Origin: Deltaproteobacteria bacterium
GTDB lineage: Bacteria > Desulfobacterota > Desulfarculia > JACQYL01
Length of the DNA: 64,000 bases
Assembly (NCBI GenBank): GCA_016208165.1
Contig: JACQYL010000001.1
Location: 8,099 to 72,098 of the forward strand
Direction of reading: 5' to 3'
In this document: piece after piece, positions 6,040 through 61,496 of the stretch
Layout of the letters: each line of letters starts with the position of its first letter
Position numbering within the stretch: the stretch's first letter is position 1
Made by a program: the position numbers and the translations under genes
Notes under the pieces: model-generated
Databases searched by the model: none
Seen by the model: only the letters and a program-made list of their open reading frames with translations
What the model was told of the DNA's origin: nothing

Positions 6040-7775
6040 GAATGCTTTCCCGCAACGCCGGGCCGAAGGCCCAACCCGTGGAACTGATCCTGGATGCCAC
6101 GGATCAGGGGATCTACGTGCTGGATGCCGAAGGACGGTGCACACTGTTCAATCGGGCCGCTTCCGTCATGACCGGCTGGGGGTCCGAGGAGGGGTTGGGT
6201 CGAAGCATTCATGAGCTTATCCACCACACCCGGCCGGGTGGATCTCCTCATCCCCCTTCCGAGTGCTCGGTCCTCGGCGTGCTGCGCACGGGCGAAGGCG
6301 TTCACAAGGACAGCGAAATCTATTGGCGTAAGAACGGCACCCCGTTTCCCGTGGAGTATTCCTCATCACCGATTATCGAGGACGGCAGGACCATCGGTGC
6401 GGTGGTTGTCTTTATCGATATCACGGAACGCAAGAAGGTTGAAAAGGCCCTGAGCGATCGGGAAGAAGAACTGCGGCTCATCTCGGATGCCGGGCCGACG
6501 CTGATTTCCTATGTCGATTCCGGCGGCCTGTACCACTGGGTCAACAAGACGTACGCCGAATGGGTGGGCCTCTCGGCCAGGGAAATACGGGGACTGCACG
6601 TCCGTGAAGTGCTGGGCGAGACGGCCTGGCTGGCCGTTGAGCCATTCGCCGAGCGTGTTCTGGCCGGTGAAGCGGTCACCTACGAGCACCAGTTGCTGAT
6701 GCGGGATGGACCCCGCTGGGTGCGTGGAACCTGTACTCCCGACCTGAATGAAGCCGGTCAGGTGCGGGGATTTGTCGAACACGCGTTGGATATCGGGGAG
6801 CGCAAGGAAGCCGAAGAGACTTACCGTGCGACCTTGAACATCCTCGAAGATTTCGACGAAGAGAAGGCCAACCTGCAAAACCTCCAGCTGGCCACGATGA
6901 ACCTGCTGGAAGACCTCGATGAAGAGCGTCTTAATTTTCAACAGATCCAAAAGGCGACCTTGAATCTTCTGGAGGATATGAATGCCGAGCGGGAGAAATC
7001 GGATCAGACGCAGCGCGCCCTTATGAACATCCTGGATGATGTGGAAGTGGAACGCGTCAAAGCTGAACAGGCCAGGGCGCTCTTGGAATCCGTCAACAAG
7101 GAGCTGGAAGCTTTTTCCTACTCGGTTTCCCACGACTTGCGGTCGCCTTTGCGCGCCATCAGCGGATTCACCCAAGCATTGATGGAAGATTGGGCGCCGC
7201 TGCTGGACGATGATGGCAAGCGCTATCTCGCTCTCGTGCAGGAAAACGCCCATAGGATGGGTCAGCTCATCGACGACCTGTTGACGTTTTCGCGGCTCGG
7301 GCGGCAGACCATGACCGTGACCGAAATCGACATGGCCGACCTGGCGCAATCCGTGTATGATGAACTTGAAACCCGGACCTCGGGGCGCAACATCGCTTTC
7401 ACGATGGGTGCGATTCCGCCGGCCCAAGGAGACAAGGCGCTGATACGTCAAGTCCTGGTGAATCTGATTTCCAACGCCGTAAAGTTTACCCAAACCAGGG
7501 AACGGGCCCTGATCGAGTTCGGCTATGAAACCCAAGGGGGGGACGGTGCTTACTTCATTCGGGACAACGGAGTAGGCTTTGATATGCGGTACGTCGACAA
7601 GCTCTTCGGGGTGTTTCAGCGGCTGCACTCGGTGACGGAGTTCGAGGGCACCGGCGTGGGACTCGCGCTGGTGTACCGTATCGTCACCCGTCACGGCGGT
7701 TCGGTTTGGGCGGAGGGCCGTCTGGATCGAGGAGCCGCCTTTTACTTCAGCTTGCCGCAGAAAGGCACAAGATGA
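6036..7775 (+). CDS. PAS/PAS sensor histidine kinase (HisKA + HATPase_c)
   Basis: Two PAS units, four 21-aa LNILED repeats, an H-box (SYSVSHDLRSPLRAI) and ATPase motifs (NAVKFT, DNGVGFD, GTGVGLALV). The start is either the GTG at 6036, overlapping the upstream TGA, or the ATG at 6042. Confidence 0.9.
   Translation: MRMLSRNAGPKAQPVELILDATDQGIYVLDAEGRCTLFNRAASVMTGWGSEEGLGRSIHELIHHTRPGGSPHPPSECSVLGVLRTGEGVHKDSEIYWRKNGTPFPVEYSSSPIIEDGRTIGAVVVFIDITERKKVEKALSDREEELRLISDAGPTLISYVDSGGLYHWVNKTYAEWVGLSAREIRGLHVREVLGETAWLAVEPFAERVLAGEAVTYEHQLLMRDGPRWVRGTCTPDLNEAGQVRGFVEHALDIGERKEAEETYRATLNILEDFDEEKANLQNLQLATMNLLEDLDEERLNFQQIQKATLNLLEDMNAEREKSDQTQRALMNILDDVEVERVKAEQARALLESVNKELEAFSYSVSHDLRSPLRAISGFTQALMEDWAPLLDDDGKRYLALVQENAHRMGQLIDDLLTFSRLGRQTMTVTEIDMADLAQSVYDELETRTSGRNIAFTMGAIPPAQGDKALIRQVLVNLISNAVKFTQTRERALIEFGYETQGGDGAYFIRDNGVGFDMRYVDKLFGVFQRLHSVTEFEGTGVGLALVYRIVTRHGGSVWAEGRLDRGAAFYFSLPQKGTR
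6828..7079 (+). repeat. Four consecutive 63-bp (21-aa, three-heptad) repeats coding for A(T/L)(L/M)N(I/L)LED...
   Basis: ATLNILEDFDEEKANLQNLQL / ATMNLLEDLDEERLNFQQIQK / ATLNLLEDMNAEREKSDQTQR / ALMNILDDVEVERVKAEQARA, lying directly before the H-box. Confidence 0.8.
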
Positions 7776-8212
7776 TCGATTGTGAAACGGAGATCGTTCT
7801 CGTGGAGGACAATCCGAACGATGCGGAACTCATTACGAGGGTGCTCAAGAAACACGATCTAGGCGACAATTTGGTCATCCTAAGGGACGGCGCGGAAGCC
7901 CTGTCGTTTCTTTTCGGGGAGGACGGCTGCGTCAAAGGATCCCTTGGCCCCCTCAGGTTGATTCTACTGGACTTGAAACTTCCGAAAGTCGATGGAACCG
8001 AGGTGCTGCGTCGAATCAAAACCGATGAGCGCACCAAGAGTATACCGGTCGTCATCCTGACTTCTTCATCGGAGCAGCGCGATCTCCATGATACTTACAA
8101 CTTGGGCGCCAACAGCTATGTGACAAAGCCGATCAAATTCACCGACTTCGCCCAAGTGGTGTCGGACGTGGGATCGTACTGGTTGCGTCGGAACAAATTA
8201 CCCGACCTGTAG
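7772..8212 (+). CDS. Single-domain response regulator (receiver only)
   Basis: EIVLVEDNPNDAEL...LILLDLKLPKVDG...VVILTSS...VTKPI. The start forms an ATGA overlap with the kinase stop. Confidence 0.9.
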   Translation: MIDCETEIVLVEDNPNDAELITRVLKKHDLGDNLVILRDGAEALSFLFGEDGCVKGSLGPLRLILLDLKLPKVDGTEVLRRIKTDERTKSIPVVILTSSSEQRDLHDTYNLGANSYVTKPIKFTDFAQVVSDVGSYWLRRNKLPDL

Positions 8213-8224
8213 CGGGGGATCCCA

Positions 8225-9904
8225 ATGAACGAGAAGCTCCGAATACTACTTCTCGAAGACAATTTCTCGGATGCAGAGCTGATTCAGCGCGAACTGCGCA
8301 AGTTCGGTTTCGATTTCGAGGTGCGCTGGGCCGAGAACAAGGCCGCTTTTCTTGACGCGTTGGATACGTTTGTGCCCGATATACTTTTAGCGGACTATGC
8401 TCTCCCAGGATTCGACGGCATGGCCGCCCTATCCCTGGCGCGGCGTCGCTTCGAGGATATACCGTTGATACTCGTGTCCGGAGCGATCGGCGAGGAAACG
8501 GCCATTGAGTGCCTCAAGGCCGGAGCGACCGACTATGTCTTAAAGCAGCGGTTGAAGCGGCTCGGGACAGTCATCCGGCGAGCACTTTTGGAATCCGAGC
8601 AATTGACCGAGAGAAAGCGGGCCGAGGAAGCCCTGCGGCAGGCCAAGGACGAGCTGGAACACAAGGTCCGGGAGCGAACGGCCGAGCTGGTTCGCACCGT
8701 CGACACGCTCCAGGAGGAAATCGCTCAGCGCCGTCGGGCCGAGGACGACGTGCGGCTGGCTAACGCACAACTGCAGGAGCGCGCGGTTCAATTGCGGGCT
8801 CTGGCCCGTCAACTGACCGTTGTCGAGAGCCGCGAGCGCAACCGAATAGCCAAGATCCTGCACGATCATCTGCAGCAACAGTTGGCATCCGCCAAGCTTC
8901 AGGTCACCTGGCTGGATCAGCTGACGGGTGACGATCTCGCCCTGGCTGCGGCGCGCATAGAAGATATTCTATCCGAGGCGATCAAGGTCTCACGCTCGCT
9001 CACCGCGGAACTGAGCCCTCCCATTTTGCACGAGGCGGGACTGGAGGCCGGGCTCGAATGGCTGGTCCGCCGGATGCTGGACGAGTACGCCCTTCGGGTC
9101 GATCTGACCGTCGACGACAGATCCGAGCTCGATGAGGACGTGAGAATCATGCTCTTCGAGTCGGTGCGCGAATTGCTCTTCAACGTGGTCAAGCATGCCA
9201 AGGTATCGTGGGCCGAGGTGCGGGTACAACCTGTGGATGAGACCGGCATGCTCATCACGGTCAGAGATGAAGGCGTCGGATTTGATCCCCTCCAATTAAA
9301 GCCGTCTGGAGATAATTATCCCGGATTTGGGTTGTTCACGATCCAAGAGCGGATCGACCTGATCGGCGGCCACTTGAAGATCTCGAGCGCCCTGGAAAAG
9401 GGTAGCTGTTTTTCGTTACTCGTGCCATACGCGCATCAGGCCGCCGCGCCGCTTTCCGGCGCGTCCTACCCCGAACCGGCGCAAACGTGCGCCGAAACGG
9501 TGCTCGAGGATGAGGCGCCGCTAATCCGTGTCTTGATTGCCGACGATCACGCCATTTTTCGCGACGGTATCGCCCGCCTGTTGAACCGTGAAAGGGATAT
9601 CCAGGTGGTCGCCGAGGCCGGCAGCGGGAGGGAAGCCGTTGAGTTGGCGCGTAAGACGGCGCCGGACCTGATCCTCATGGACATCTCGATGCCCGAGGTC
9701 AACGGCATCGAGGCCACCCGGATCATTTGCAGGGAGTCACCGGATATTCGGATCATCGGTTTTTCCATGTACGAAGACGAAGAGCGGTCTCTTGCGATTC
9801 TAAAGGCCGGCGCCGTTGGGCACAAGACCAAGGGCTGCGCGGCATCCGATCTGCTGGAAGCGATCCGCCGGTGCATGCGCGCGAAATCGGTTGGAGGACC
9901 GTAA
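8225..9904 (+). CDS. Hybrid histidine kinase: REC - coiled coil - HisKA_3 - HATPase_c - REC
   Basis: N-terminal REC (ILLLEDNFSDAEL..ILLADYALPGFDG), a HisKA_3-type H-box (RNRIAKILHDHLQQQL), an ATPase domain (DEGVGFD, GFGLFTIQERI), and a C-terminal NarL-type REC (IRVLIADDHAIFRDG..LILMDISMPEVNG) with no HTH after it. Confidence 0.9.
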   Translation: MNEKLRILLLEDNFSDAELIQRELRKFGFDFEVRWAENKAAFLDALDTFVPDILLADYALPGFDGMAALSLARRRFEDIPLILVSGAIGEETAIECLKAGATDYVLKQRLKRLGTVIRRALLESEQLTERKRAEEALRQAKDELEHKVRERTAELVRTVDTLQEEIAQRRRAEDDVRLANAQLQERAVQLRALARQLTVVESRERNRIAKILHDHLQQQLASAKLQVTWLDQLTGDDLALAAARIEDILSEAIKVSRSLTAELSPPILHEAGLEAGLEWLVRRMLDEYALRVDLTVDDRSELDEDVRIMLFESVRELLFNVVKHAKVSWAEVRVQPVDETGMLITVRDEGVGFDPLQLKPSGDNYPGFGLFTIQERIDLIGGHLKISSALEKGSCFSLLVPYAHQAAAPLSGASYPEPAQTCAETVLEDEAPLIRVLIADDHAIFRDGIARLLNRERDIQVVAEAGSGREAVELARKTAPDLILMDISMPEVNGIEATRIICRESPDIRIIGFSMYEDEERSLAILKAGAVGHKTKGCAASDLLEAIRRCMRAKSVGGP

Positions 9905-34892: not shown

Positions 34893-35640
34893 GACAAAAC
34901 CAACATCATCGCAGCGTTGCTGGAGAGATTGGACAACACGCCCATGGGGCATCATCCGGATATCCGGCCGTATAAAAGAAACTGATCGGTCGTGGTCGTG
35001 CGAAGGACCGAAACGGTTTATGAAATCATTGAAGAAGGATTCTTCTGCGACCGTTTTTCCGTGGAGGCCTCCGGGTTGAAGAAAAGCCTGCGGGTAATGA
35101 TCAAAAAGGAGTTTCCGCGAAGCCACAAAATATGGGTGTACGCCATGGAGCCGTATCCGCAGGAAGAACCGCACGGCACGGAGAGAAAGAAGATTTGAGG
35201 ATTGTTTCACAGATGGTCCGCTTGGGGCCACGGAAAGAGAGGCTGTTGGGTAAGCTAGAGAATCGGAAAGAAGTCAACATGCGGGCTTGCCCCCCGACAC
35301 AGTCCTCTCTCGATAAAATGATATGATTCCGACCTCCTTCCGGGAATTCTTTCCAGAAAGTCCTAAGCTTGCTTCTCTTGGCTTTTCTGGCTATAAATAT
35401 CGACGAATACGGGCTAATAATACAGCAAGGCCTTTTGCATAAACTCTTCATTAGGTTAGGAGCGTCATCGGGGGCAGCGAAGTAAGGAAGATCGTCCTTC
35501 TTGAAGTGATGCGATGTTCAAGGCGGGTACTCTGAAAAGACTGAACAATCTGTTCATCTACCGGGAGCGAATCGCCAAAAAGCTGTTTGTCTCGGAACTC
35601 TGTTACAACCGATCCCTTTAATAGAGCCAGGGGAACGCAC

Positions 35641-36816
35641 ATGAATCGATTTGAAAACCTTCAAGAATTAGAAATAGACACTGAATCGGCATGCTCCGAT
35701 TCCGCCCCAGAAGACGGTGGTGTTGAACCCGAGGAAGTGGAGGGAGACGAGCCCATAACACAGCCCTTCGATCCCACAAAGACGCAGATCATCACTTCAT
35801 GGCCGACGGTTAGCCTCTTGGTGACGAGGATACAAGAGGGAGAAATCGATCTGTTCCCAAGTTTTCAGAGAAAGGCGGACCTCTGGTCGCCAGCCCAGAA
35901 AAGTCGCCTGATAGAATCATTACTGCTTCGCATGCCCCTGCCCTCTTTCTATTTCGACGCCACTGACGACGAAAACTGGGTCGTAGTGGATGGACTGCAG
36001 CGTCTTTGGACGTTACAGGAGTTTCTCCTAAGCGACATGAGGCTTCATCACCTCGAGTTTTTGATTAATTACGAAAATAGCATGTTCAAAGACTTACCCC
36101 GACACCTGCAGAGACGTATCGGAGAGACGCAGGTCGTTGCGCATCTCATTCAGCCGGGCACACCACCCCAGGTAAAGTTTAACATATTTAGGCGAATCAA
36201 CACGGGTGGATTAGTTCTCTCGGCCCAAGAGATCAGGCACGCACTGAATCAAGGGAATGCACCCCAATTCCTAAAGAAACTCGCGTGCTCGAAGGCTTTC
36301 TTAGAGGCGACCCAAGGGAGCGTGCGCCCCGATCGTATGGAAGATCAGGAATTTGTACTTCGTTTCATGGCTTTCACGATCGTTCCGTACCCTCAATATA
36401 AGGTAGCAGATCTTGATGGGTTTCTGCATGAACAAATGGCTAGATTGAACACCGTCGGAAATGATGAGCTCGAAGACCTAGAGGTGAGATTTCAACGGGC
36501 TATGAGAGCATCAAGGCTGATCTTTGGAAGACAGGCCTTCAGGAAAAGCCTTAGGGATGGGGTTTCGGCCTGGAGAAATCCCATCAACAAGGCCATCTTT
36601 GAGGTCTGGTCCGTCACTCTGGGCCAACTCACTGAAGATAAATTAGAACATTTAATCCACCGAAAAGATGACGTCATCAGTAGATTTATTGAGGTTTTGA
36701 ACACTAATGACGAGTTTGTCGCCGCGGTATCTCAAGGAACTGGGGACGTAAAGAAAGTGAAGCAGCGGTTTAAAACCGTTGCCAAACTTGTAGAGGATAT
36801 CCTCAATGCAAACTAA
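35641..36816 (+). CDS. DUF262 (ParB/sulfiredoxin-like NTPase fold) protein, cassette gene A
   Basis: DLFPSFQRKADLWSPAQKSRLIESLLLRMPLPSFYFDATDDENWVVVDGLQRLWTL shows the FQR and DGQQR-type (here DGLQR) motifs of DUF262. Downstream is RRINTGGLVLSAQEIRHAL. The N-terminal 40 aa are acidic. Confidence 0.8.
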   Translation: MNRFENLQELEIDTESACSDSAPEDGGVEPEEVEGDEPITQPFDPTKTQIITSWPTVSLLVTRIQEGEIDLFPSFQRKADLWSPAQKSRLIESLLLRMPLPSFYFDATDDENWVVVDGLQRLWTLQEFLLSDMRLHHLEFLINYENSMFKDLPRHLQRRIGETQVVAHLIQPGTPPQVKFNIFRRINTGGLVLSAQEIRHALNQGNAPQFLKKLACSKAFLEATQGSVRPDRMEDQEFVLRFMAFTIVPYPQYKVADLDGFLHEQMARLNTVGNDELEDLEVRFQRAMRASRLIFGRQAFRKSLRDGVSAWRNPINKAIFEVWSVTLGQLTEDKLEHLIHRKDDVISRFIEVLNTNDEFVAAVSQGTGDVKKVKQRFKTVAKLVEDILNAN

Positions 36817-37927
36817 TCACCTGCAGGCCATCCATCTAATGAATTTTAAGTGCTTCGAAGACCAGAAGGTTTCGCTTGCTCCGATTACCCTCCTCACAGG
36901 TCTCAACGGCATGGGTAAGTCAACAGTATTACAGAGCTTGTTGCTGCTTCGACAATCGGCCATGCGGAACGTGTTGGAACACTATGGTTTGCTACTGAAC
37001 GGCGATTTGGTGAATCTGGGCAGGGCAGGCGATGTGCTGTTCGAAGGTGCTCGAGACGAGCATATTGTTCTTGAATTGACCGTTGGCGGGATGCAGGAGT
37101 CCTGGAAATTCAGGTATGAGGATCCCCATGCGGACGTGCTGATGCTGGAAGAGGGACCAAAGGTCTTGCCTGAATGGGTGGTTTTCGGCAATCGATTCCA
37201 TTATTTGGCGGCTGAGCGCATGGGGCCACGAGAAATCTACGAGATCTCTGCCTACTATGTTCGCAAATTGCGACAATTGGGCGCAGATGGGCGATTCGCG
37301 GTGGCCTATCTTGAAGAATACGGAAAAAGCCTGCGGTGCCTCCAAGGGTTGCTGCATCCGAAAACCTCTGACTCGACGGAGGAAAATCTTTATTCACAGG
37401 TTAACTTGTGGCTGGGAGAAATCAGTCCTGGTGCGCGATTGGAACCGATTTCCTTCCCGGACATAGGCAAGACTTCGTTGAGGGTTTCCTTTCCTTCTTC
37501 TACCAAGGGGCTAATGTCCAGACCATATTCGACGCCCAATGTCGGCTTCGGTTTCAGTTATACGCTCCCGGTTCTTGTGGCCGTTCTGTCGTCTTCTTCA
37601 GGAGATTTGGTTCTCATGGAAAATCCGGAGGCACATCTGCATCCGCAGGGACAAGTGGCGTTGGGGCGACTGTTCGCACTCGCCGCGTCTGGCGGGATAC
37701 AACTCATTGTGGAGACTCACAGTGATCATATACTGAACGGAGTACGCGTAGAAGTGAGGGATGGTTGTATTGCCAGCGAGGATGTGCGCATTCATTTTTT
37801 CCAACGGAACCAGCCTGGTGGGCAGCATTTTGTGGAGTCTCCTCGGGTGGATAAGGATGGACGAATCGATAACTGGCCGGAAGGATTTTTCGATCAAACA
37901 GAGCGTCTCCTAATGGAATTGATTTAA
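36806..37927 (+). CDS. ABC-type/AAA_15-21-like ATPase with a DUF3696-like C-terminus, cassette gene B
   Basis: IHLMNFKCFEDQKVSLAPITLLTGLNGMGKSTVLQSL (Walker A); LVLMENPEAHLHPQGQ (Walker B / D-loop type); LIVETHSDHIL (H-loop); C-terminal NWPEGFFDQ. The start overlaps gene A by 11 nt. Confidence 0.8.
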   Translation: MQTNHLQAIHLMNFKCFEDQKVSLAPITLLTGLNGMGKSTVLQSLLLLRQSAMRNVLEHYGLLLNGDLVNLGRAGDVLFEGARDEHIVLELTVGGMQESWKFRYEDPHADVLMLEEGPKVLPEWVVFGNRFHYLAAERMGPREIYEISAYYVRKLRQLGADGRFAVAYLEEYGKSLRCLQGLLHPKTSDSTEENLYSQVNLWLGEISPGARLEPISFPDIGKTSLRVSFPSSTKGLMSRPYSTPNVGFGFSYTLPVLVAVLSSSSGDLVLMENPEAHLHPQGQVALGRLFALAASGGIQLIVETHSDHILNGVRVEVRDGCIASEDVRIHFFQRNQPGGQHFVESPRVDKDGRIDNWPEGFFDQTERLLMELI

Positions 37928-37945
37928 GGCCGCAGGGTTCCCCGA

Positions 37946-38902
37946 TTGCATCAGATATTGAACGAGTTGTCTTTCCAGAAGGTCTCTACGAGCGTAAAGG
38001 ATGCCCAGGAACGCATGCATATGCTCTTGCTCGTTTTCAAGGCCGTTGCTGATTGCGGTTCTGAGAAGATCCTTCGTACCAAACGAAACCTTATGTCCGA
38101 ATTGGTTGCTTCCCAATATACTGTCTCGCACTGGCTTCAGGACAGACGCGTGAACCGGGACGAACGGTTATTATTCAAGACCGTAGCAACGAAAGCCCCT
38201 TTTGTCGAGGAACTCTGGAACAAATTGGAATCAGACGACTTGGGCCTGCACGAATTCTATTTCCAAGGTCAAAAAGCTGAGGGTTTGGGCGTGGCTTATC
38301 TTGACGATACATGTGCTCTTTCCCTTGGAGGTGATCAGAGGTTCGAACAGGATCCCATTCAAGTCGTGTATCAAGTGATGTATGCCCTAAATAGTAGATT
38401 GGGATCCGAAACTGTGGAAGTCTGCTCTTTGAGTAACTTAGACCATGTATGCCGCCGTTGCGTATGGATTGGTGAACGTGCTCAAAGACAGGTCGTCGAT
38501 GGGGTCTCACTCTGGGAGCAAAAGGAATCTCTATTTCCTCGTCTCGCGTTTCTCCCTGCAACCAAGGCGCAAATTCAACAGTTATCGGGGCGTGAACCTC
38601 ATTTCCGCCAAGTTCTTAAACATCTTTTCATACTGAACAGTGCGATGAAAAAGTGGGCTGGAGGGCCGTACAACCCGGAAGGCATCGAATGGTCCGCAGA
38701 AAGCCTGTCTACAAGGACCAGCAAGAAACTTGCGGACGCCCGCAGGTTTTCTAATTCTAACGGTAACTTCGCAGTATATAATTACCACACGAAGATTAGA
38801 GGCATCAACTGGCGCATACACTTCCATCCTGATACTGAAAAACAGATCGTGACCATAGCATACATAGGACGACATCTGCCAACAGCCAGACACGGAAAGT
38901 AA
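37946..38902 (+). CDS. Hypothetical protein, cassette gene C (no recognised family; C-terminal RelE/ParE-like signature)
   Basis: 318-aa ORF 18 nt after gene B. The start is the TTG at 37946 or the ATG at 38015. The C-terminus ..FAVYNYHTKIRGINWRIHFHPDTEKQIVTIAYIGRHLPT resembles the terminal beta-strands of RelE/ParE/HigB toxins. Confidence 0.6.
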   Translation: MHQILNELSFQKVSTSVKDAQERMHMLLLVFKAVADCGSEKILRTKRNLMSELVASQYTVSHWLQDRRVNRDERLLFKTVATKAPFVEELWNKLESDDLGLHEFYFQGQKAEGLGVAYLDDTCALSLGGDQRFEQDPIQVVYQVMYALNSRLGSETVEVCSLSNLDHVCRRCVWIGERAQRQVVDGVSLWEQKESLFPRLAFLPATKAQIQQLSGREPHFRQVLKHLFILNSAMKKWAGGPYNPEGIEWSAESLSTRTSKKLADARRFSNSNGNFAVYNYHTKIRGINWRIHFHPDTEKQIVTIAYIGRHLPTARHGK

Positions 38903-52787: not shown

Positions 52788-53852
52788 TCAGGGTTCCAAA
52801 TTCAGCGAAGAGGCATGCTTGCGATAGAGCCCCCGGAACTGGTGGTAGGTGAGGCCCAGAAGCTCGGCCGCTTTATGCTGGCGGAAGCGGGCCTCGAGGA
52901 GGGCCCGCTGAATCAGTCGAATTTCAAGATCGGCCACCTGCCGGGTCAACGGGGTGTCCAGGGCTAGGGCGGGTTCAAGCGGAGACTGGACCGCCGAATC
53001 AGCGGTCTGGCTCTGTTCGGAAGGGGGCGCCAAAACGGATTCAGGGAACGGATCGAAGACGATTTCTTTAATGGATTCAGAGTCGGATCGGTAAACGGCG
53101 CGTTCCACTACGTTCTTGAGTTCGCGTACATTTCCGGGCCAGGAATAGGCCTCAAGGGAGATCATGGCCTCTCGAGTGAACACCGGCAGGGCGTCGTGTC
53201 CCAATTCCTTTGCGATGCGCGAAGCGAAGTGACGCGCGAGAAGAGACACATCTCCCGCCCTGTTCCTGAGCGCCGGCAACAGCAGTACTTCAAAGGAGAG
53301 CCGGTCGAGGAGGTCGCGTTTGAACCGGCCTTCGCGCGCCAGGGCCGGCAAGTCCGCATTGGTGGCCCCGATGATGCGGACATCGACCATTACGACGTCC
53401 GACCCTCCAACCCGTTCAAAAGTGCCGTATTCCACGACGCGAAGAATTTTCTCCTGGGCTTCAAGGGGAATATTGCCGATTTCGTCGAGGAAAAGCGTAC
53501 CCCCGTGAGCGGCCTCGAAGCGCCCTATTCTTCGTTTGACGGCGCCGGTAAACGCCCCCGGCTCATACCCGAAGAGCTCGGATTCGATGAGGCCCGGAGA
53601 GAGGGCCGCGCAATTCAGAGCAAGCAGGGGACTCCTCCAACGGTGGGAAAGATAATGGAGACGGGAGGCGGCCAGTTCCTTACCGGTTCCTCTTTCTCCG
53701 ATGATGAGGATTGGGCGGTCCACACGTGCGGCCCGAGATAGACGCTCCTGGAAATCCAGAAAGGATTCCGACTCACCAAGGCCTTCCTGGGAAGCGAGGG
53801 CGGGCATGTCGGTCTGGTTGCGAGTGAAGGATGACATGGTGTATATTACCAT
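52788..53852 (-). CDS. pspF: Sigma-54-dependent activator PspF (AAA+ and HTH domains, no receiver domain)
   Basis: ILIIGERGTGKE (Walker A), GAFTGA loop (YEPGAFTGA), TLFLDEIG, GNVRELKNVVERA, and a C-terminal HTH (HKAAELLGLTYHQFRGLYRKH). It is divergent from pspA. The start is at 53852 or 53837. Confidence 0.85.
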   Translation of the reverse strand: MVIYTMSSFTRNQTDMPALASQEGLGESESFLDFQERLSRAARVDRPILIIGERGTGKELAASRLHYLSHRWRSPLLALNCAALSPGLIESELFGYEPGAFTGAVKRRIGRFEAAHGGTLFLDEIGNIPLEAQEKILRVVEYGTFERVGGSDVVMVDVRIIGATNADLPALAREGRFKRDLLDRLSFEVLLLPALRNRAGDVSLLARHFASRIAKELGHDALPVFTREAMISLEAYSWPGNVRELKNVVERAVYRSDSESIKEIVFDPFPESVLAPPSEQSQTADSAVQSPLEPALALDTPLTRQVADLEIRLIQRALLEARFRQHKAAELLGLTYHQFRGLYRKHASSLNLEP

Positions 53853-53857
53853 ATATA

Positions 53858-53890
53858 GGCTAAAATAGCCAGTATTTTGCTAAAACAGCC
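53858..53890. promoter_or_regulatory. Putative PspF upstream activating sites (two (G/T)GCTAAAA(T/C)AGCC repeats 20 bp apart)
   Basis: GGCTAAAATAGCC (a palindrome, 53858-53870) and TGCTAAAACAGCC (53878-53890), about 100 bp upstream of the sigma-54 promoter. Confidence 0.35.
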
Positions 53891-53969
53891 GGATTACGTT
53901 CAGCCGGCGGGTCTCTGATTCACGTACAACTCGTTGATATTGCTTAGCTAGTATGGATTTTGCCCAAGT

Positions 53970-53985
53970 TGGCCCGGTTGTTGCC
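53970..53985 (+). promoter_or_regulatory. Sigma-54 promoter of pspABC
   Basis: TGGCCCGGTTGTTGCC has GG and GC at the -24/-12 spacing. It lies 38 nt upstream of the pspA ATG. Confidence 0.6.
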
Positions 53986-54023
53986 CACTTTCATGGCAAC
54001 CAAGCCACAAGAGAGGTGACATC

Positions 54024-54707
54024 ATGGGCGTTTTCAGCAGAGTTCGAGATATCGTGAGTTCAAACATCAATGCCATGCTGGACCGGGCGGAAGACCCGGA
54101 GAAGCTGGTCCGGCTCATGATCCAGGAGATGGAGGACACCCTGGTGGAAATCAAAGCCTCGTGCGCAGGGGCTATGGCAGCCAAAAAACAAACGCAGCGG
54201 GCTTTGGAAGACCACCGGGAGCGGACCCGTTCGTGGGAGCAGAGGGCGGAGCTGGCCGTTGGAAAGGGGCGCGAGGACCTGGCCAGAGAGGCGTTGCTGG
54301 AAAAACGCCGGTACCTGCAGCGCGCGGAGACCCTGGAGGACGAAATGGGTCAGACGCAGGCCATCATTGCCCAATACCAGGAACAGATCGCCCAGCTCGA
54401 GGAGAAGCTGGCCACGGCCAGAGAAAAGCAGCGTCTGCTCGTTCAGCGACACGTTCATGCCCGTGATCGGAAACGAGCCCAGGAAGACATTCGGCGCTTC
54501 GAAACTTCCGATGTGTTCCTGAGGTTCGAGCAGTTCGAGAACCGCATCGAGCGCATGGAAGCCGAGGCGGAGATGGTCAATCTCGGTCGCACTCCGTCGC
54601 TGGACGACGAGTTTGCCCGTTTAGCGGAAGGCGAAGAGATCGAGCGAGAACTCGAGACGTTGAAAGCCAAATGTGGACGAAGGGGCGAAGAACACCGACC
54701 GATGTGA
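54024..54707 (+). CDS. pspA: Phage shock protein A
   Basis: MGVFSRVRDIVSSNINAMLDRAEDPEKLVRLMIQEMEDTLVEIK is the PspA/IM30 N-terminus. The rest is a long coiled coil. Confidence 0.9.
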   Translation: MGVFSRVRDIVSSNINAMLDRAEDPEKLVRLMIQEMEDTLVEIKASCAGAMAAKKQTQRALEDHRERTRSWEQRAELAVGKGREDLAREALLEKRRYLQRAETLEDEMGQTQAIIAQYQEQIAQLEEKLATAREKQRLLVQRHVHARDRKRAQEDIRRFETSDVFLRFEQFENRIERMEAEAEMVNLGRTPSLDDEFARLAEGEEIERELETLKAKCGRRGEEHRPM

Positions 54708-54754
54708 TCGGGATGAAACGGACAAAGCTGAGTTGATCTGCATATGGAGGAAAG

Positions 54755-55000
54755 ATGAGTGAGGTTCTGTTGGCCTTCGTGCTGATCCTGGGTCTGCCCG
54801 TCCTGATCGTGGCGGGATTCTTCCTGATTTGGGTTTTGAAAATCCTCACACGTGGGGGCCCGCATAAGCGAGATGAGGCTCAAGCCGAGGAAACCCGTTT
54901 GATCCAGGAACTCCACCAGGGCCTTTTGAAGATGGAGGAGCGCATCGAGGCCCTGGAAACGATCTTGCTCGATGCGGAAAAAAAGGAAGATCGAAAATGA
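54755..55000 (+). CDS. pspB: Phage shock protein B
   Basis: 81 aa with a single TM helix (LLAFVLILGLPVLIVAGFFLIWVL) followed by LIQELHQGLLKMEERIEALETILL. It lies between pspA and pspC. Confidence 0.8.
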   Translation: MSEVLLAFVLILGLPVLIVAGFFLIWVLKILTRGGPHKRDEAQAEETRLIQELHQGLLKMEERIEALETILLDAEKKEDRK

Positions 55001-56200: not shown

Positions 56201-57805
56201 TCAGATACCGAAGATTTCTCGTATTCCGAACAGCAATTTGTCTCTGATCGACGCCTCTTTCCTCCCTCCGGTCAGCGCTTTGAGCCGGACCGATTCGCTC
56301 TCCATATATTTTTGGTCGGACAGCTCGACCGCGCGTTCTTTCTCCGCAAGGCGCGTCGCCAACACAGAACTGATGTTTTCCGCAAGAGCGGGATGGCTCT
56401 TGATGATGTGTTGAAAACTCTTCCTATGTAAGACAAATACTTCGCAATCCGTTTCGGCCGTCACGGTTGCCGAGCGCTTTTCTCCGGTCAGGACGGAAAG
56501 CTCTCCGAAAAAGTTTCCGGCAGTGAGACAGGCTATTCGAGTCCGTTGCTTCTGCGATGAATCCGCATACACCTCCACGCTTCCCGATCCGACGATGTAA
56601 AAGGATTCTCCATCGTCACCTTGCCTGATCAGGGTTTCCCCCTGGGAATAGTACTCGACGTACACTTCGCCGCTCAAGAACCGGAAATCATCATCGCTGA
56701 GGGGGGACAGGAAGTCGATGGATCGAAGTATCTTTTCAACGGCGCTCTTTCTTTCTTCCGGGGTGACTTCGGGTTGCACCCGCACGTCACGAACGGGATA
56801 AGGAATTTTGATGCCGTTCCGCTTAAATTGATACCAGATCCGGCGAAATACCTTATCTTCTATGGCGCGAACCCTATCGTAATCGGTGATCCAAAAACGA
56901 AGCTGGTAAACGATCGCGAAGTCGCCGTATTCAATCAAAAACACGGTGGGAGGGGGGGTCTTCTGGACTTCATCGATACCGAGAGCGCTCTGTATCAAAA
57001 CGGCGGCCGCTTGATTCGGCGGGTGATCGTACGAAACGCCGATGTTCTTTCTGCAAAGATGACTTCTCCAGGGAGCGGAGTAGTTGACAAGGCTCGATTT
57101 CGCAATCGCGTTGTTCGGAACAACGATCATGTCCTCGGATCGGTCCACGAGTTTGACCGAACGCCAGTTGATTTCAATCACCCTGCATTCTTTGCCTTCG
57201 ACGAGCACCCAGTCTCCTATCTTGAAGGGATTGTCCATCTGAATGGACAATCCGGCGAACAGATTTCCAAGCGTATCCTGGAGCGCCAAGCCGATGATCA
57301 GAGAAAATATGGCCGAGGTAGTGAGCAACGAGGTGAAATTGACATTGAAATAGACTCCCAGAAGCCAGATAACAATGATGAGATATAGAATGACTTTGCC
57401 GCTGTCCCGAACCAAAGCGGGTATTTTATGTTTGGACGGTCGACGTCGATAGTGCGCTTCCAGAAAAAGACTCACGGTCCCAATGGCGATATAAACGGAT
57501 ATCACCGCCAGAAGGATCTGTACTAAGGTCGGAACATGACCGGTGTACCCCTGCAGGAAGAAGGCTAGGTGGATGCTCGCCAAAATAGTGGCTATGTGCA
57601 CGACGGACAAGAACCTTCGGTTGGTGGTCTTGAACTGGTCCCACACGTCTTTGAACACCGCTGGAAGAATACGCCTCGTCAGAACCAGCGTCAGGATACG
57701 AACCAGAAGATAGAAGAGGACGCCGCAACCCACGGATAGCGCCATTTGCTCCAGAGCGTTCAGGTTTGAATAGAACGCTCGAATCGATGTTATATAAGGC
57801 TTCAA
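56201..57805 (-). CDS. MscS-family mechanosensitive channel fused to a cyclic-nucleotide-binding domain
   Basis: MscS core (LIIGLALQDTLGNLFAGLSIQMDNPFKIGDWVLVEGKECRVIEINWRSVKL...VVPNN) and a C-terminal cNMP domain (GETLIRQGDDGESFYIVGSGSVEV...FFGELSVLTGEKRSATVTA). Confidence 0.85.
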   Translation of the reverse strand: MKPYITSIRAFYSNLNALEQMALSVGCGVLFYLLVRILTLVLTRRILPAVFKDVWDQFKTTNRRFLSVVHIATILASIHLAFFLQGYTGHVPTLVQILLAVISVYIAIGTVSLFLEAHYRRRPSKHKIPALVRDSGKVILYLIIVIWLLGVYFNVNFTSLLTTSAIFSLIIGLALQDTLGNLFAGLSIQMDNPFKIGDWVLVEGKECRVIEINWRSVKLVDRSEDMIVVPNNAIAKSSLVNYSAPWRSHLCRKNIGVSYDHPPNQAAAVLIQSALGIDEVQKTPPPTVFLIEYGDFAIVYQLRFWITDYDRVRAIEDKVFRRIWYQFKRNGIKIPYPVRDVRVQPEVTPEERKSAVEKILRSIDFLSPLSDDDFRFLSGEVYVEYYSQGETLIRQGDDGESFYIVGSGSVEVYADSSQKQRTRIACLTAGNFFGELSVLTGEKRSATVTAETDCEVFVLHRKSFQHIIKSHPALAENISSVLATRLAEKERAVELSDQKYMESESVRLKALTGGRKEASIRDKLLFGIREIFGI

Positions 57806-58291
57806 TGAAGTACTCTCTCGCGACAGGACCGGTTCTTACTGAAAGCGACTCGAACGGCCAGGGGTAAAGGATGTTTTGTCTCTTCTGAAAACCATCGCCG
57901 GCTGTTTCGGGAGCTGGAGTGAAAACGAGAGAACAGACCGACACGCACTGAAACCTACACTGAGGAACGGATGAGTGTCAATGATATGGTTTGCATACGG
58001 ACGCCACGCACGAGTGGAAGAATCGATGACCGCCGGCGGCTGTCCAAATCCCGGCATCGCGAGGAGCACAACCCGCCCGCGCGTATGGGCGACGGGATGG
58101 AGAGCGTCGGACAACGGAACGTCTGTGTGGCGAATAGATCTTTGCGGGCGCTTTATGATAGATAGGATTGATGCATGCATAGACGGCGCTGCAGAAGGTT
58201 CTCACAAAACTGTTTTCAAGGCGGTTCCGCGGGCGCCGAAATCTTAAACAGGCTTGGCTCCGGGAGCCTGTTCCCCTCGGAAGGATACCAC

Positions 58292-58555
58292 ATGGCTAAG
58301 CATTCTCATGATTTTGTTGAAACGTACGTTGATCTGGTCGGATTCGGTATGGATCGGGAAATAGACGAAGCCACGGTTATCGTCATGCTGCAGAAACTCT
58401 CGGATGACGCGCTCATGGATCTGTTGCGGCATCGTCTTTCCGACGAGGAACTGAAGGACTTGTTCGAGATGGTCTCAAATTTGCTGAAAGAACACTTGTC
58501 CGAGGAAGAATACCATACGTTTTTTTTGAAGGACCGGGAGGAGGAGTCCCTCTGA
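58292..58555 (+). CDS. Small acidic hypothetical protein
   Basis: 87 aa from the ATG at 58292: MAKHSHDFVETYVDLVGFGMDREIDEATVIVMLQKLSDDALMDLLRHRLSDEELKDLFEMV. I recognise no family. Confidence 0.45.
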   Translation: MAKHSHDFVETYVDLVGFGMDREIDEATVIVMLQKLSDDALMDLLRHRLSDEELKDLFEMVSNLLKEHLSEEEYHTFFLKDREEESL

Positions 58556-59124
58556 ACGCATGCATTCCCGTTTTTTCCCGCCGGGATCATCTCCTTCGTT
58601 CAGCGTCGGCTGTCAGAACTCCATGGGTTTGGCGGATAACTTGTCAATCGTTTGACACACGGATAAAATATGAACAGAAGACGGGTAAGATGAGCAATGG
58701 CCGTATAGGAATACAGGATTGTTCTTCGATGAACGGGAAAGAAAAGAGGTTTCTTTTTTCCAGGAGCATCTCCGGTAAAGGTCCGTTCACAGGACGAGAA
58801 GCAAGGTGATGCCTGAGGTCTGTTCAGAGGGTCGAAATCGGCGTCTATTCGAGTTCTCCTGCAGCCCTCGTTCAGCCCACCGACGAGGGCCGGCAGGTCC
58901 CGTAAGGGCGGGTTTGAAACCCGCTCCCAGATCATGATCCGCCTTCACTTTTTCGGACGCGGGTAACCCTTGGTTCCCCTCCAATCAGGATGAGGCGGGG
59001 CGTGAGGAACTGTCGTAGTACGAGCCGGTCTCAGTATCAGACCATTCTTGGGATATCCGGGAGGTGTCGTGTTGGCGGGGCGACGGATTGGCGCATTTCA
59101 AAAGAGGCTTTCGAGCGAGCCTAT

Positions 59125-59140
59125 TGGCACATAAATTGCT
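59125..59140 (+). promoter_or_regulatory. Sigma-54 promoter upstream of the multi-EIDAL / FliN-like pair
   Basis: TGGCACATAAATTGCT is a full match to TGGCAC-N5-TTGCW. It lies 48 nt upstream of the ATG at 59189. Confidence 0.6.
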
Positions 59141-59188
59141 CGGTTTAGGGAAAAGCATGTTCCACGCGCCCGATAGACAAGTAAGAAA

Positions 59189-61018
59189 ATGGTGAATAAG
59201 ACCATGACACTCAGTCATATTATCCAAGAGGCGAACCGGAAGCTTGAAACCGAAAGGGACGAACTGGTCAAGGTCGCCAAGGCCGAAAAATACCGGGGTA
59301 CCGTTGATGAAATCATGGAATTCCTGGATCAATACGACGGCCATTTTCAAGACACCAATGTCCAGGTGGTGAAGGCGGCTTTGGAAACGTTTCTCAGACG
59401 TCTTTCTCCCCCTGCGCTTAAACTGACGATGGCTTCCATGAAGCGCCAGGTAGGTATACAACTGGGCTCGGCAACCCAGGAGCCCTCCAATTCAGCTTCC
59501 GGAGGTGGCTCAGTGATCTCTCAAAGCGATATCGACGCTCTGCTCAAGGGGGCCAACGCTTCCGAGGAATCTACAAGCGCTTTCGAACAATCAGAGATCG
59601 ACGCGCTTCTCGGGGAGATTGAGGAACTTGGCCCGCAGTCAGGGAAAAGGCCTTCGGGCACACCGGCGAAAAAGCCGTTGGAAAGGTCTCCCCAAGCATC
59701 CACCGATCTGGGAGATCCAGACTTGATCGTGGATCAATCCGCCATTGATGCGCTTCTTGCCGGAGTAAAAGAGGACGCGAGCGCCAAAAGAACGGCCGGT
59801 ACGCCTTTGGTTGCGAAGAAAACGCCCGGCAAGAGCGTTGGACACGAATCCCGCACAACGGAACGTCCGTTTTTTGAGGAAGAAATAGTCAGTCAAACGG
59901 ACATCGACGCCCTTCTTTCTCAGGGGATGGTGTCCAAAAAAGAAATCGGCGTGGAGGCGGAAAGAGCGCTGGATCCTTCGCTGGTGGAGGAACTGCTGGC
60001 GCAGATTCAAACGGATGCGAAGCCTGAAGAATCAGCGGTGGTGGAAGACGCATCGGACCTCTCTCCCGAGACGGGATTTCCGACATCAGAGGATACGAAT
60101 ATAGATCAATCCTCCATCGACGCTCTTTTTTCGCAGGAAGCGGGGTCGCAGAAAGCACTCGAGGCCGAGGCCCAGGCGGCGCTGGATCAGACTTCCGTGG
60201 AGGAGCTGCTGGCGCAGATTGAAACGGATGCGAAGCCTGAAGAATCAGCGGTGGTGGAAGACGCATCGGACCTCTCTCCCGAGACGGGATTTTCGTCGTC
60301 GGAGGATACGAATATAGTTCAATCCTCCATCGATGCTCTTTTTTCGCAGGAAGCGGCGCCGGAAGAAAAGGACCAACTTGCCGATAGGGATTCATGGCTC
60401 GTCAATGGAACATCCGGTATAGAGGAAGCAGAAGCTCTGCTCGCGCCCGAAGGAGGGCCGATGCAGGCTTTCCCGGAAGAGGAGATGCCGGCCGCCGGAG
60501 AGGCGGCTTCCCCGGAATCTGCGGAGATTCCCATGGCTCCGGATCTGGAAGCAGGCGACGTGCCGTTGGAGATTGAATTACCGCTTATTGAACCCGTGCC
60601 CGATCAGCAGCGTGTGGTGGACGCCATCGTCGAGGCTACACGGAAAAAAGTGTCACAGAATCTTCCGCCCGCCGGCAAGAATCAACCCTCGCCCGGTGAG
60701 CATGTCCAGGGCGCAGTCGTCGGCAAGGAGGCTGCATTCCGTTCGCAAGACATAGGCAGGGAGCGCATTTTAGAAGAAAGAGGCGAGGCGAAAGTGCTGG
60801 ACACCTTCTATCGGATCTATGCCTGCGTCAACGGAAGCTATGAACTCCTATCGGAATCGAGCAGCGCGGAAGAGACGAAACAAAAACTGATGACCGCATG
60901 GATGGATCACGCAGGGAAAGATATTGTAATCAAACGTGTAACCCGAAAAGAGGTGCTGGTCATTAAAGAGGACCTCGATGACGTTCCGGTTCGCCTGGAA
61001 GTCACGTTGGATTCCTGA
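59189..61018 (+). CDS. Acidic repeat protein carrying six FliM/FliY-N-terminus-like (S/D)Qx(D/E/A/S)IDAL(L/F) motifs
   Basis: 609 aa. The motifs are VISQSDIDALL, FEQSEIDALL, VDQSAIDALL, VSQTDIDALL, IDQSSIDALF and VQSSIDALF. They are separated by low-complexity acidic or Pro/Lys linkers, with structured-looking N- and C-terminal domains. Confidence 0.7.
   Translation: MVNKTMTLSHIIQEANRKLETERDELVKVAKAEKYRGTVDEIMEFLDQYDGHFQDTNVQVVKAALETFLRRLSPPALKLTMASMKRQVGIQLGSATQEPSNSASGGGSVISQSDIDALLKGANASEESTSAFEQSEIDALLGEIEELGPQSGKRPSGTPAKKPLERSPQASTDLGDPDLIVDQSAIDALLAGVKEDASAKRTAGTPLVAKKTPGKSVGHESRTTERPFFEEEIVSQTDIDALLSQGMVSKKEIGVEAERALDPSLVEELLAQIQTDAKPEESAVVEDASDLSPETGFPTSEDTNIDQSSIDALFSQEAGSQKALEAEAQAALDQTSVEELLAQIETDAKPEESAVVEDASDLSPETGFSSSEDTNIVQSSIDALFSQEAAPEEKDQLADRDSWLVNGTSGIEEAEALLAPEGGPMQAFPEEEMPAAGEAASPESAEIPMAPDLEAGDVPLEIELPLIEPVPDQQRVVDAIVEATRKKVSQNLPPAGKNQPSPGEHVQGAVVGKEAAFRSQDIGRERILEERGEAKVLDTFYRIYACVNGSYELLSESSSAEETKQKLMTAWMDHAGKDIVIKRVTRKEVLVIKEDLDDVPVRLEVTLDS
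59984..60358 (+). repeat. Near-identical tandem duplication (213-bp period) inside the multi-EIDAL gene
   Basis: VEELLAQI(Q/E)TDAKPEESAVVEDASDLSPETGF(PT/SS)SEDTNI(D/V)QSSIDALFSQEA occurs twice. The DNA copies differ at only a few positions. Confidence 0.9.
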
Positions 61019-61046
61019 ACACGAATCGATGGTAAGGGCATAGGTT

Positions 61047-61496
61047 GTGGAAGAGAACGGCGTCAATACAACGGAAATGGACGATGCCTGGGAAGCCGCC
61101 CTGCGGGAGCAGCGGGACGCAGAAGCGGGTGTAACGCCGACCCAGGCTCAGGAAGACGAGAAAAGCCCGTCTCACCCGGTCCAACAGAGGGAACAGCGGC
61201 TTGGGGACGCTCTTGCGCCGTCACCCGGTACGGCAACCGTTGGTCTGGAACTCCTATTGAGTATTCCCGTTGAGGTGAGTGTCCGCTTGGGCGAGACAAA
61301 ACTGGTGGTGAACGATCTGATGCAGCTGGGCCAAGGAAGCATTGTCGAGCTGGATAAGTTGGCCGGCGCCGATTTGGATCTGATGATCAACGATGTGGTC
61401 ATGGGAAGGGGCGAAGTGGTCGTGGTGAACGATCGCTTCGGACTGAGGGTGACGGAGATCGTTTCACCGGAGGATCGAATCAAGGGACTCGGCTAG
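61047..61496 (+). CDS. fliN: FliN-like protein (SpoA / surface presentation of antigens domain)
   Basis: LELLLSIPVEVSVRLGETKLVVNDLMQLGQGSIVELDKLAGADLDLMINDVVMGRGEVVVVNDRFGLRVTEIV is the FliN/SctQ C-terminal domain. The start is the GTG at 61047 or the ATG at 61077. Confidence 0.8.
   Translation: MEENGVNTTEMDDAWEAALREQRDAEAGVTPTQAQEDEKSPSHPVQQREQRLGDALAPSPGTATVGLELLLSIPVEVSVRLGETKLVVNDLMQLGQGSIVELDKLAGADLDLMINDVVMGRGEVVVVNDRFGLRVTEIVSPEDRIKGLG

Follow-up and report, generated by a model that had tools for sequence, protein, structure and literature searches.

A gene pair behind a putative sigma-54 promoter encodes a six-copy array of FliM-type docking motifs and a divergent FliN-like protein

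We analyzed a 64,000-nucleotide (nt) stretch of a Deltaproteobacteria bacterium genome (assembly GCA_016208165.1, contig JACQYL010000001.1, positions 8,099 to 72,098 of the forward strand; hereafter the window, whose own numbering is used throughout) and focused on two adjacent genes, here called A and B. Open reading frame (ORF) A encodes 609 amino acids (aa) in the ORF list, or 604 aa when translation begins at M6 as in the NCBI annotation (P0001, "hypothetical protein HY788_00325"), and ORF B encodes 149 aa and begins 28 nt past the end of A (Table 1). No terminator was found in the 28-nt gap, and since the two genes are so closely spaced, their co-transcription is likely. The predicted layout of A comprises a helical N-domain, an acidic array of six short motifs, a conserved linear motif, and an alpha/beta C-domain.

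An original prediction, made by a model from the letters of this DNA, had singled out six copies of a docking peptide in the 609-aa ORF. A count bore this out: the motif Q-x-x-I-D-A-L-[L/F] occurs six times, with its Q at residues 112, 134, 183, 236, 307, and 378, against a chance expectation of 1.2e-4 copies for a protein of this length and composition. Ahead of the Q, each copy has two hydrophobic or small residues followed by S, D, or E. The region from aa 96 to 445 is of low complexity and acidic (E+D about 20%), and the picture of acidic linkers strung between two end domains was matched by the pattern of conservation, identity to distant orthologues being 51 to 63% in the end domains and 42 to 48% in the motifs, but only 19 to 24% in the array linkers, more than half of which was gapped. 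Up to aa 390, every invariant column of the array fell inside a motif (alignment A2). Since the motifs are conserved while the linkers are not, A is evidently a real gene under selection, which, inside the array, bears on the motifs.

The same prediction had likened the motif to the N-terminus of FliM, where the peptide LSQxEIDALL docks phosphorylated CheY (CheY-P) (PMC6700473). In 120 Desulfobacterales-type FliM proteins, the N-terminal motif reads (I/V)L(S/T)QxEVDSLLSGL, and 28 copies from the A family agreed with these FliM N-termini at each position compared: hydrophobic at -3 and -2, S/D at -1, Q at 0, I/V/L at +3, D at +4, L at +6, and L/F at +7. The likeness to FliM thus held up across the motif logo. 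The peptide was present as a single copy in 120 of the 120 FliM sequences, so that the view of switch proteins as single-copy stood as a rule; it did not stand without exception, because some genuine FliM, FliN, and FliY proteins carry three to six copies.

Beyond the six copies, degenerate ones were seen in A as LD(P/Q)xxVEELLAQI near aa 263 and 334 and as QQRVVDAIVEA at aa 473. The last motif duplication is accounted for by two tandem 213-nt units, the remaining copies lying in unique DNA; Tandem Repeats Finder detected no DNA tandem repeat, and the 213-nt pair came from a separate repeat search. Past the array, the linear motif PDLEAGDVPLEIE has the consensus P-D-L-x-A-G-D-V-P-L-x-I-E, followed by a degenerate QQxVVDAIVEA (alignment A2), and every orthologue keeps its residues P451, D452, L453, A455, G456, D457, V458, P459, L460, and I462. 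A matched no family in Pfam or NCBIfam (E<=0.1), and searches of its end domains against the PDB, with single sequences and with profiles, returned spurious or marginal matches only. AlphaFold2 modeled the N-domain as four helices with a predicted local distance difference test score (pLDDT) of 52 and the C-region with a pLDDT of 61, good for aa 534 to 584 only, and placed motif copy 1 in a helix at low confidence.

ORF B had been described as a FliN/SpoA domain without the docking peptide, and this proved correct. B matched Pfam FliMN_C (PF01052) at 8.6e-23 and NCBIfam TIGR02480 (fliN) at 91.5 against a cut-off of 84.05, and B has no EIDAL motif and no Pfam match to the CheC domain (PF04509). 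B orthologues have in common an N-terminal motif, W-x-x-A-L-x-E-Q-R, which is present in three copies at one locus (L014:11360-11875) and was not seen in the canonical Desulfobacterales FliNs compared. This motif resembles the N-terminus of E. coli FliN, which we take to be DDLWADALNEQ. B also retains the equivalents of E. coli FliN L68, A93, V111, and V113 (numbering as we take it to be), presumably the hydrophobic patch used in FliH binding and switching. The B orthologues (P0011-P0018) cluster tightly among themselves, with canonical FliN proteins as next-best matches, and the nearest of these, P0019, lies within a motAB-fliL-fliM-fliN-fliOPQR operon. SpoA identity was 67 to 90% among canonical FliNs of Desulfobacterales, Nitrospirota, and Bacteriovoracaceae, 51 to 64% between B and canonical FliNs, and 54 to 78% between the sub-lineages of B. 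Since the SpoA divergence of B goes beyond the canonical range, B is a paralogue that evolves fast and not an ordinary housekeeping FliN. Judged by its sequence, B belongs to the FliN/SpoA family but fails the contextual and conservation features of a canonical FliN.

The predicted sigma-54 promoter ahead of the pair, which the original prediction had called perfect, is the sole exact TGGCAC-N5-TTGCW in the 64-kb window, where 0.05 would be expected. A sigma-54 site lies 62 to 69 nt upstream of the ATG in nine of nine core-family loci, in the form TGGCA(C/T)-N5-TTGCT or, in L001 and L005, as a weaker CGGCAC-N5-TTGTA. Upstream of the site, by 165 to 480 nt, an invariant inverted repeat GTCA-N6-TGAC was present in all eight core loci with enough upstream DNA (among them, besides the window, at 9694 in L001, 9685 in L002, 2784 in L003, 7546 in L007, 2130 in L009, and 2342 in L012), the distance between repeat and promoter being about 230 nt longer in the window than in L002 and L007. 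This is where the activator site of a sigma-54 enhancer-binding protein would be expected to lie. The half-sites of the repeat are identical to those of the FleQ box of Pseudomonas, GTCaNTAAAtTGAC (PMC8125075, PMC6120874), which we offer as a lead, not as a test. A sigma-70-like TTGTCA-17-TAAAAT overlaps the repeat as well, and a sigma-70 promoter is kept only as an alternative to the activator site. The PspF-type activator encoded nearby is that of the pspA operon. At 52788-55000, its gene stands divergent from pspA, an 81-aa gene, and pspC, and the synteny of this block with the A-B locus extends to the closest relatives (L002 and L007, 1-4100), with a gene for an MscS-cNMP channel in between. 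Rfam detected no RNA in 57800-59300 or in the whole window, and no tRNAs were found in the window.

Table 1. Positions of the genes, motifs, and putative control elements at the A-B locus, in window coordinates
Feature	Position	Strand	Remarks
Upstream ORF, 87 aa	58292..58555	+	acidic, helical; counterpart (81-91 aa) at the same position in L001, L002, L003, L005, L007, L009
Inverted repeat GTCAATCGTTTGAC (GTCA-N6-TGAC)	58643..58656	.	candidate upstream activator site for a sigma-54 enhancer-binding protein
Predicted sigma-54 (-24/-12) promoter TGGCACATAAATTGCT	59125..59140	+	exact TGGCAC-N5-TTGCW
ORF A	59189..61018	+	
A N-domain, aa 1-90	59189..59458	+	four helices predicted; 60-63% identity with distant orthologues
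Motif copy 1, VISQSDIDALL	59513..59545	+	aa 109-119; S111, Q112, D114, D116, L118, L119 invariant (alignment A2)
Motif copy 2, AFEQSEIDALL	59579..59611	+	aa 131-141
Motif copy 3, IVDQSAIDALL	59726..59758	+	aa 180-190; Q183 invariant (alignment A2)
Motif copy 4, IVSQTDIDALL	59885..59917	+	aa 233-243; Q236, L242 invariant (alignment A2)
Two tandem 213-nt units, 81% identical	59893..60318	+	direct-repeat search; hold the motif 4-5 and 5-6 segments
Motif copy 5, NIDQSSIDALF	60098..60130	+	aa 304-314; Q307, I310, D311, L313 invariant (alignment A2); CheZ-type ALF ending
Motif copy 6, NIVQSSIDALF	60311..60343	+	aa 375-385; Q378 invariant (alignment A2); CheZ-type ALF ending
Linear motif PDLEAGDVPLEIE	60539..60577	+	aa 451-463; followed by QQRVVDAIVEA; candidate partner-binding peptide
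A C-domain, aa 527-609	60767..61015	+	predicted beta-beta-alpha-beta-beta topology; 51-53% identity with distant orthologues
ORF B	61047..61496	+	
B N-terminal motif DDAWEAALREQR	61080..61115	+	kept in all B orthologues
B SpoA (FliMN_C) domain, aa 69-139	61251..61463	+	Pfam; 51-64% identical to canonical FliN

Only seven relatives of A (357 to 691 aa) were recovered from 5.8 billion proteins, one of them the identical NCBI entry HY788_00325 (Deltaproteobacteria bacterium). An additional A of 702 aa (L007:7863-9968) emerged from the comparison of gene neighborhoods, a scan of 185,579 species genomes yielded two A loci, both in metagenome-assembled genomes of uncultured Thermodesulfobacteriota, and JGI metagenomes yielded four; P0162 (439 aa), on a 3.35 Mb contig, is a more distant member. 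The orthologue set of A comprised P0002-P0007, L007:7863-9968, L009, L010-L013, and P0162. In all, the A-B pair was seen at about ten loci of uncultured Thermodesulfobacteriota. The number of motif copies varied from four to eight among A orthologues, a B orthologue lay directly 3' of A in every locus, and at none of the loci was the pair inside a flagellar operon. The core family shares a gene order in which a gene of 81 to 91 aa is followed, after a gap of 0.3 to 0.6 kb, by A and B, and then by a convergent SnoaL_2 gene and genes for a biotinyl-carrier protein, AspRS, and HisRS. The 87-aa upstream ORF of the window had no Pfam match, and, as a neighbor in the core family only, its place in the A-B system is uncertain.

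At L014, a locus from a distant lineage, an unrelated ORF stands where the core family has the 81- to 91-aa gene, and a true fliL (L014:11880-12341, minus strand; 152 aa; Pfam 31.7 bits against a cut-off of 24.6), convergent to A-B, occupies the position of the SnoaL_2 gene. No flagellar gene lay within 10 kb of a core-family pair; the neighbors in L001-L013 included none, and those in L014 only this fliL. That the pair sits outside flagellar clusters was therefore upheld here and in every locus seen: when judged-plausible ORFs of at least 150 aa across the whole 64 kb were compared with Pfam, no further flagellar, chemotaxis, or type III secretion gene was found.

We then asked how far tandem copies of this motif extend beyond the A family. 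A motif profile built from 37 instances was run against 1.84 billion cluster representatives and matched 252 of them at E<=1e-3 and 74 at E<=1e-10, with 2 to 21 matched stretches each; by regular expression, the array proteins have up to 23 copies. Defining the array class as proteins with at least three SQxx(I/L)DxL(L/F) motifs on disordered acidic linkers, A belongs to it with six. The literature that we searched held no description of multi-copy EIDAL or CheY-binding arrays, of FliL-like array proteins, or of a link between FliL and CheY. Hence, the suggestion that no protein of A's architecture had been described agrees with this literature, but the array principle is not unique to A, being found in at least 252 representatives, and the tandem arrays form a broader class that is itself apparently undescribed.

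The proteins on which the arrays occur are informative. CheZ-domain proteins P0167, P0180, P0205, and P0224 have a C-terminal array of four to seven SQ(D/G/A)xIDALF copies, and ALF endings are typical of CheZ arrays. Since the C-terminus is where CheZ has its own CheY-binding peptide, this placement supports CheY-P docking by the arrays; CheZ engages CheY much as FliM does, and on the same face (PMC3774744). A true FliM (P0195; L018:8001-9530) has five N-terminal copies and is encoded within fliE-flgBC-fliFGHI-fliM-fliN-fliP, while FliN proteins P0208, P0265, and P0271 have three to six copies and FliY P0192 has three internal ones. The gene that follows the five-copy FliM encodes an unusually long FliN (L018:9532-10503, 323 aa). 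In 50 of 149 array proteins (P0008-P0010, P0132-P0148, and others), the array is combined with a transmembrane helix and a FliL-like module, 2 to 16 SQxDIDALL motifs lying on acidic linkers in the cytoplasmic N-terminal part. The gene for one of these, P0008, directly follows fliMNOPQR-flhBA-flhF-flhG-fliA in a canonical flagellar cluster, and such flhFG-adjacent FliL-like arrays are compatible with either CheY or FlhG as ligand. P0131, with more than 20 copies, adjoins a Maf/MptE-like gene. Every informative case, that is, every array protein with a recognizable domain or context, was flagellar or chemotactic. With arrays on CheZ, FliM, FliN, FliY, and FliL-like proteins, the idea that A may act as a multivalent scaffold for CheY-P or FlhG gained comparative support. 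The notion of a non-flagellar switch-like complex, also raised by the original prediction, was weakened by the true fliL beside the pair in L014 and by the flagellar or chemotactic setting of the informative arrays.

The reading that we favor, to which we would give even chances, is that A, under sigma-54 control, is a multivalent docking scaffold for CheY-P and acts together with B, a FliN paralogue dedicated to it, at or near the flagellar switch. A would be a soluble scaffold presenting six short linear motifs of the FliM_N/CheZ_C type, each of which would fold as a helix onto the alpha4-beta5-alpha5 face of CheY-P. The disordered acidic linkers would join the motifs, and the two small family-specific domains would flank the array. 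A and B would be expressed from the sigma-54 promoter with its probable upstream activator site, probably within the flagellar regulon, and B, as the dedicated SpoA partner, could either tie A to the C ring or build a free SpoA oligomer with A. Six tethered helices would raise the local concentration of CheY-P, or buffer or sequester it near the switch, whereby the response of the motor would be tuned. More tentatively, and with somewhat less than even confidence, we suggest that tandem CheY-P-docking arrays are a widespread undescribed module, found on CheZ, FliM, FliN, FliL-like proteins, and orphans, of which A-B would be a free-standing version, a sigma-54-controlled multivalent CheY-P sponge or antenna docked via its own FliN paralogue. 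In that case, the gain or threshold of the flagellar switch would be adjusted by A-B, which would add a step of chemotaxis signal processing that model organisms do not have.

That CheY-P is the ligand of A and that A-B is located at the motor are points that we infer, and several observations weigh against them. No cheY, cheA, or flhG lies beside the A-B pair in any locus, a gene for a methyl-accepting chemotaxis protein lying about 10 kb upstream in L001 and L005 only, and the best 120 of more than 1,200 FliM/FliN matches included none on A-bearing contigs. Contact between A and B is suggested solely by the linkage of their genes. B, more divergent than canonical FliNs are across phyla, may not fit a C ring, and the weak end-domain models of A yielded no functional fold match. 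Lastly, in other species, the EIDAL peptide at the N-terminus of FliM or FliY is bound by FlhG as well (PMC12826062; PMC6946799).

This last point underlies the main rival explanation, in which the array would dock the MinD-like ATPase FlhG, and A-B, as an FlhG carrier or sink with a FliN-type subunit, would take part in C-ring assembly and in setting the number or placement of flagella. Besides the binding of FlhG to this peptide in the species studied (PMC12826062), it would explain the FliL-like multi-motif gene directly 3' of flhF-flhG-fliA. In polar flagellates, the early and middle genes of flagellar assembly are typically under sigma-54 control, and this too would suit an assembly role. 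We nevertheless consider FlhG an unlikely ligand, since fusion of the same arrays to CheZ is sensible for CheY-P only, since no flhG lies near the pair in any locus, and since copies 5 and 6 of the motif end in ALF, as is typical of CheZ. A further possibility is a co-opted, non-flagellar module, in which B would form a free SpoA platform, with A recruiting a CheY-like receiver of an alternative chemosensory or two-component pathway to another target. The absence of the pair from flagellar operons, the fast evolution of B, and the lack of canonical FliM or FliN on A-bearing contigs among those best 120 matches all fit such a module, as do the many PAS kinases of the window and its single-domain receiver (7706-8212). 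Against it stand the true fliL adjoining the pair in L014, the array fusions and contexts, which were flagellar or chemotactic wherever informative, and the score of B, which is still above the FliN equivalog-domain cut-off, and we would put its probability low.

Finally, B could be the organism's sole FliN, relocated, with A serving as an accessory in assembly or export; its repeats would then be generic acidic amphipathic helices devoid of a specific signaling partner. B does have the layout of a full-length FliN, with an N-terminal W-motif and a SpoA domain, and no second FliN from A-bearing contigs was among the best 120 matches. However, the divergence of B is far above that among canonical FliNs, and the repeat fits the CheY-docking motif position by position, with selection acting on the motifs and not on the linkers, which makes this the least likely of the explanations and, in our judgment, a very improbable one.

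By Pfam, the other plausible genes of the window comprise those for PAS kinases, ATP synthase a, adenylate cyclase, MFS and RND transporters, a GmrSD/AAA defense pair, PspF-PspA-PspC, the MscS-cNMP channel, the SnoaL_2 protein, and methylmalonyl-CoA mutase. A signaling cluster at 3280-9904 comprises a 7-PAS protein, a PAS histidine kinase, the single-domain receiver, and a hybrid kinase with two receivers. At 35587-38902, a GmrSD_N nuclease-like gene, an AAA_15/AAA_21/DUF3696 ATPase gene, and a 318-aa ORF look like a small defense island.

In the E. coli model, CheY-P is read by the flagellar switch via one docking peptide per FliM. In A, an orphan scaffold, this peptide is multiplied 6-fold, and in other proteins, including phosphatases and rotor and stator-associated proteins, up to more than 20-fold, which would imply that motor control outside model organisms has repeatedly come to use multivalent capture or buffering of CheY-P (or FlhG). 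The A-B family is itself rare, and its function is put forward here conditionally; the pair would be a compact, testable case for the effects of valency on motor sensitivity, CheY-P lifetime, and flagellar assembly, and the motif profile provides a means to annotate several hundred "hypothetical" proteins.

Among known systems, FliM resembles A in all key positions of the motif, in its disordered context, and in the predicted helix, but FliM has one copy followed by a CheC-like middle domain and SpoA, whereas A has six copies and matched neither PF02154 nor SpoA. CheZ likewise tethers an SQxx(I/V)DxL(L/F) peptide on a flexible linker, and copies 5 and 6 of A share its ALF ending; however, CheZ is defined by its phosphatase domain, PF04344, which A did not match. 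Similarly, the CheC domain of FliY/CheC (PF04509) was matched by neither A nor B, and the Flg_hook C-terminal domain of FliK (PF02120) was not matched by A. Since these defining domains are absent, A is not a member of the FliM, FliY/CheC, CheZ, or FliK families. B, for its part, shares the SpoA domain with FliN and FliY, exceeds the cut-off of TIGR02480, and has retained the residues of the hydrophobic patch. Unlike fliN, its gene stands apart from fliM and fliO-R and forms a pair with A, and the divergence of its SpoA domain is unusual; unlike FliY, it has neither a CheC domain nor an EIDAL peptide. The closest parallel in array design is provided by the FliL-like proteins, which have tandem arrays of the same motif on acidic linkers, but these are membrane-anchored and bear a FliL-type periplasmic module, whereas A is predicted to be soluble, with end domains of its own and a FliN paralogue as partner. 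As far as its sequence tells, A is therefore a known docking motif set in an undescribed, multivalent, and free-standing architecture.

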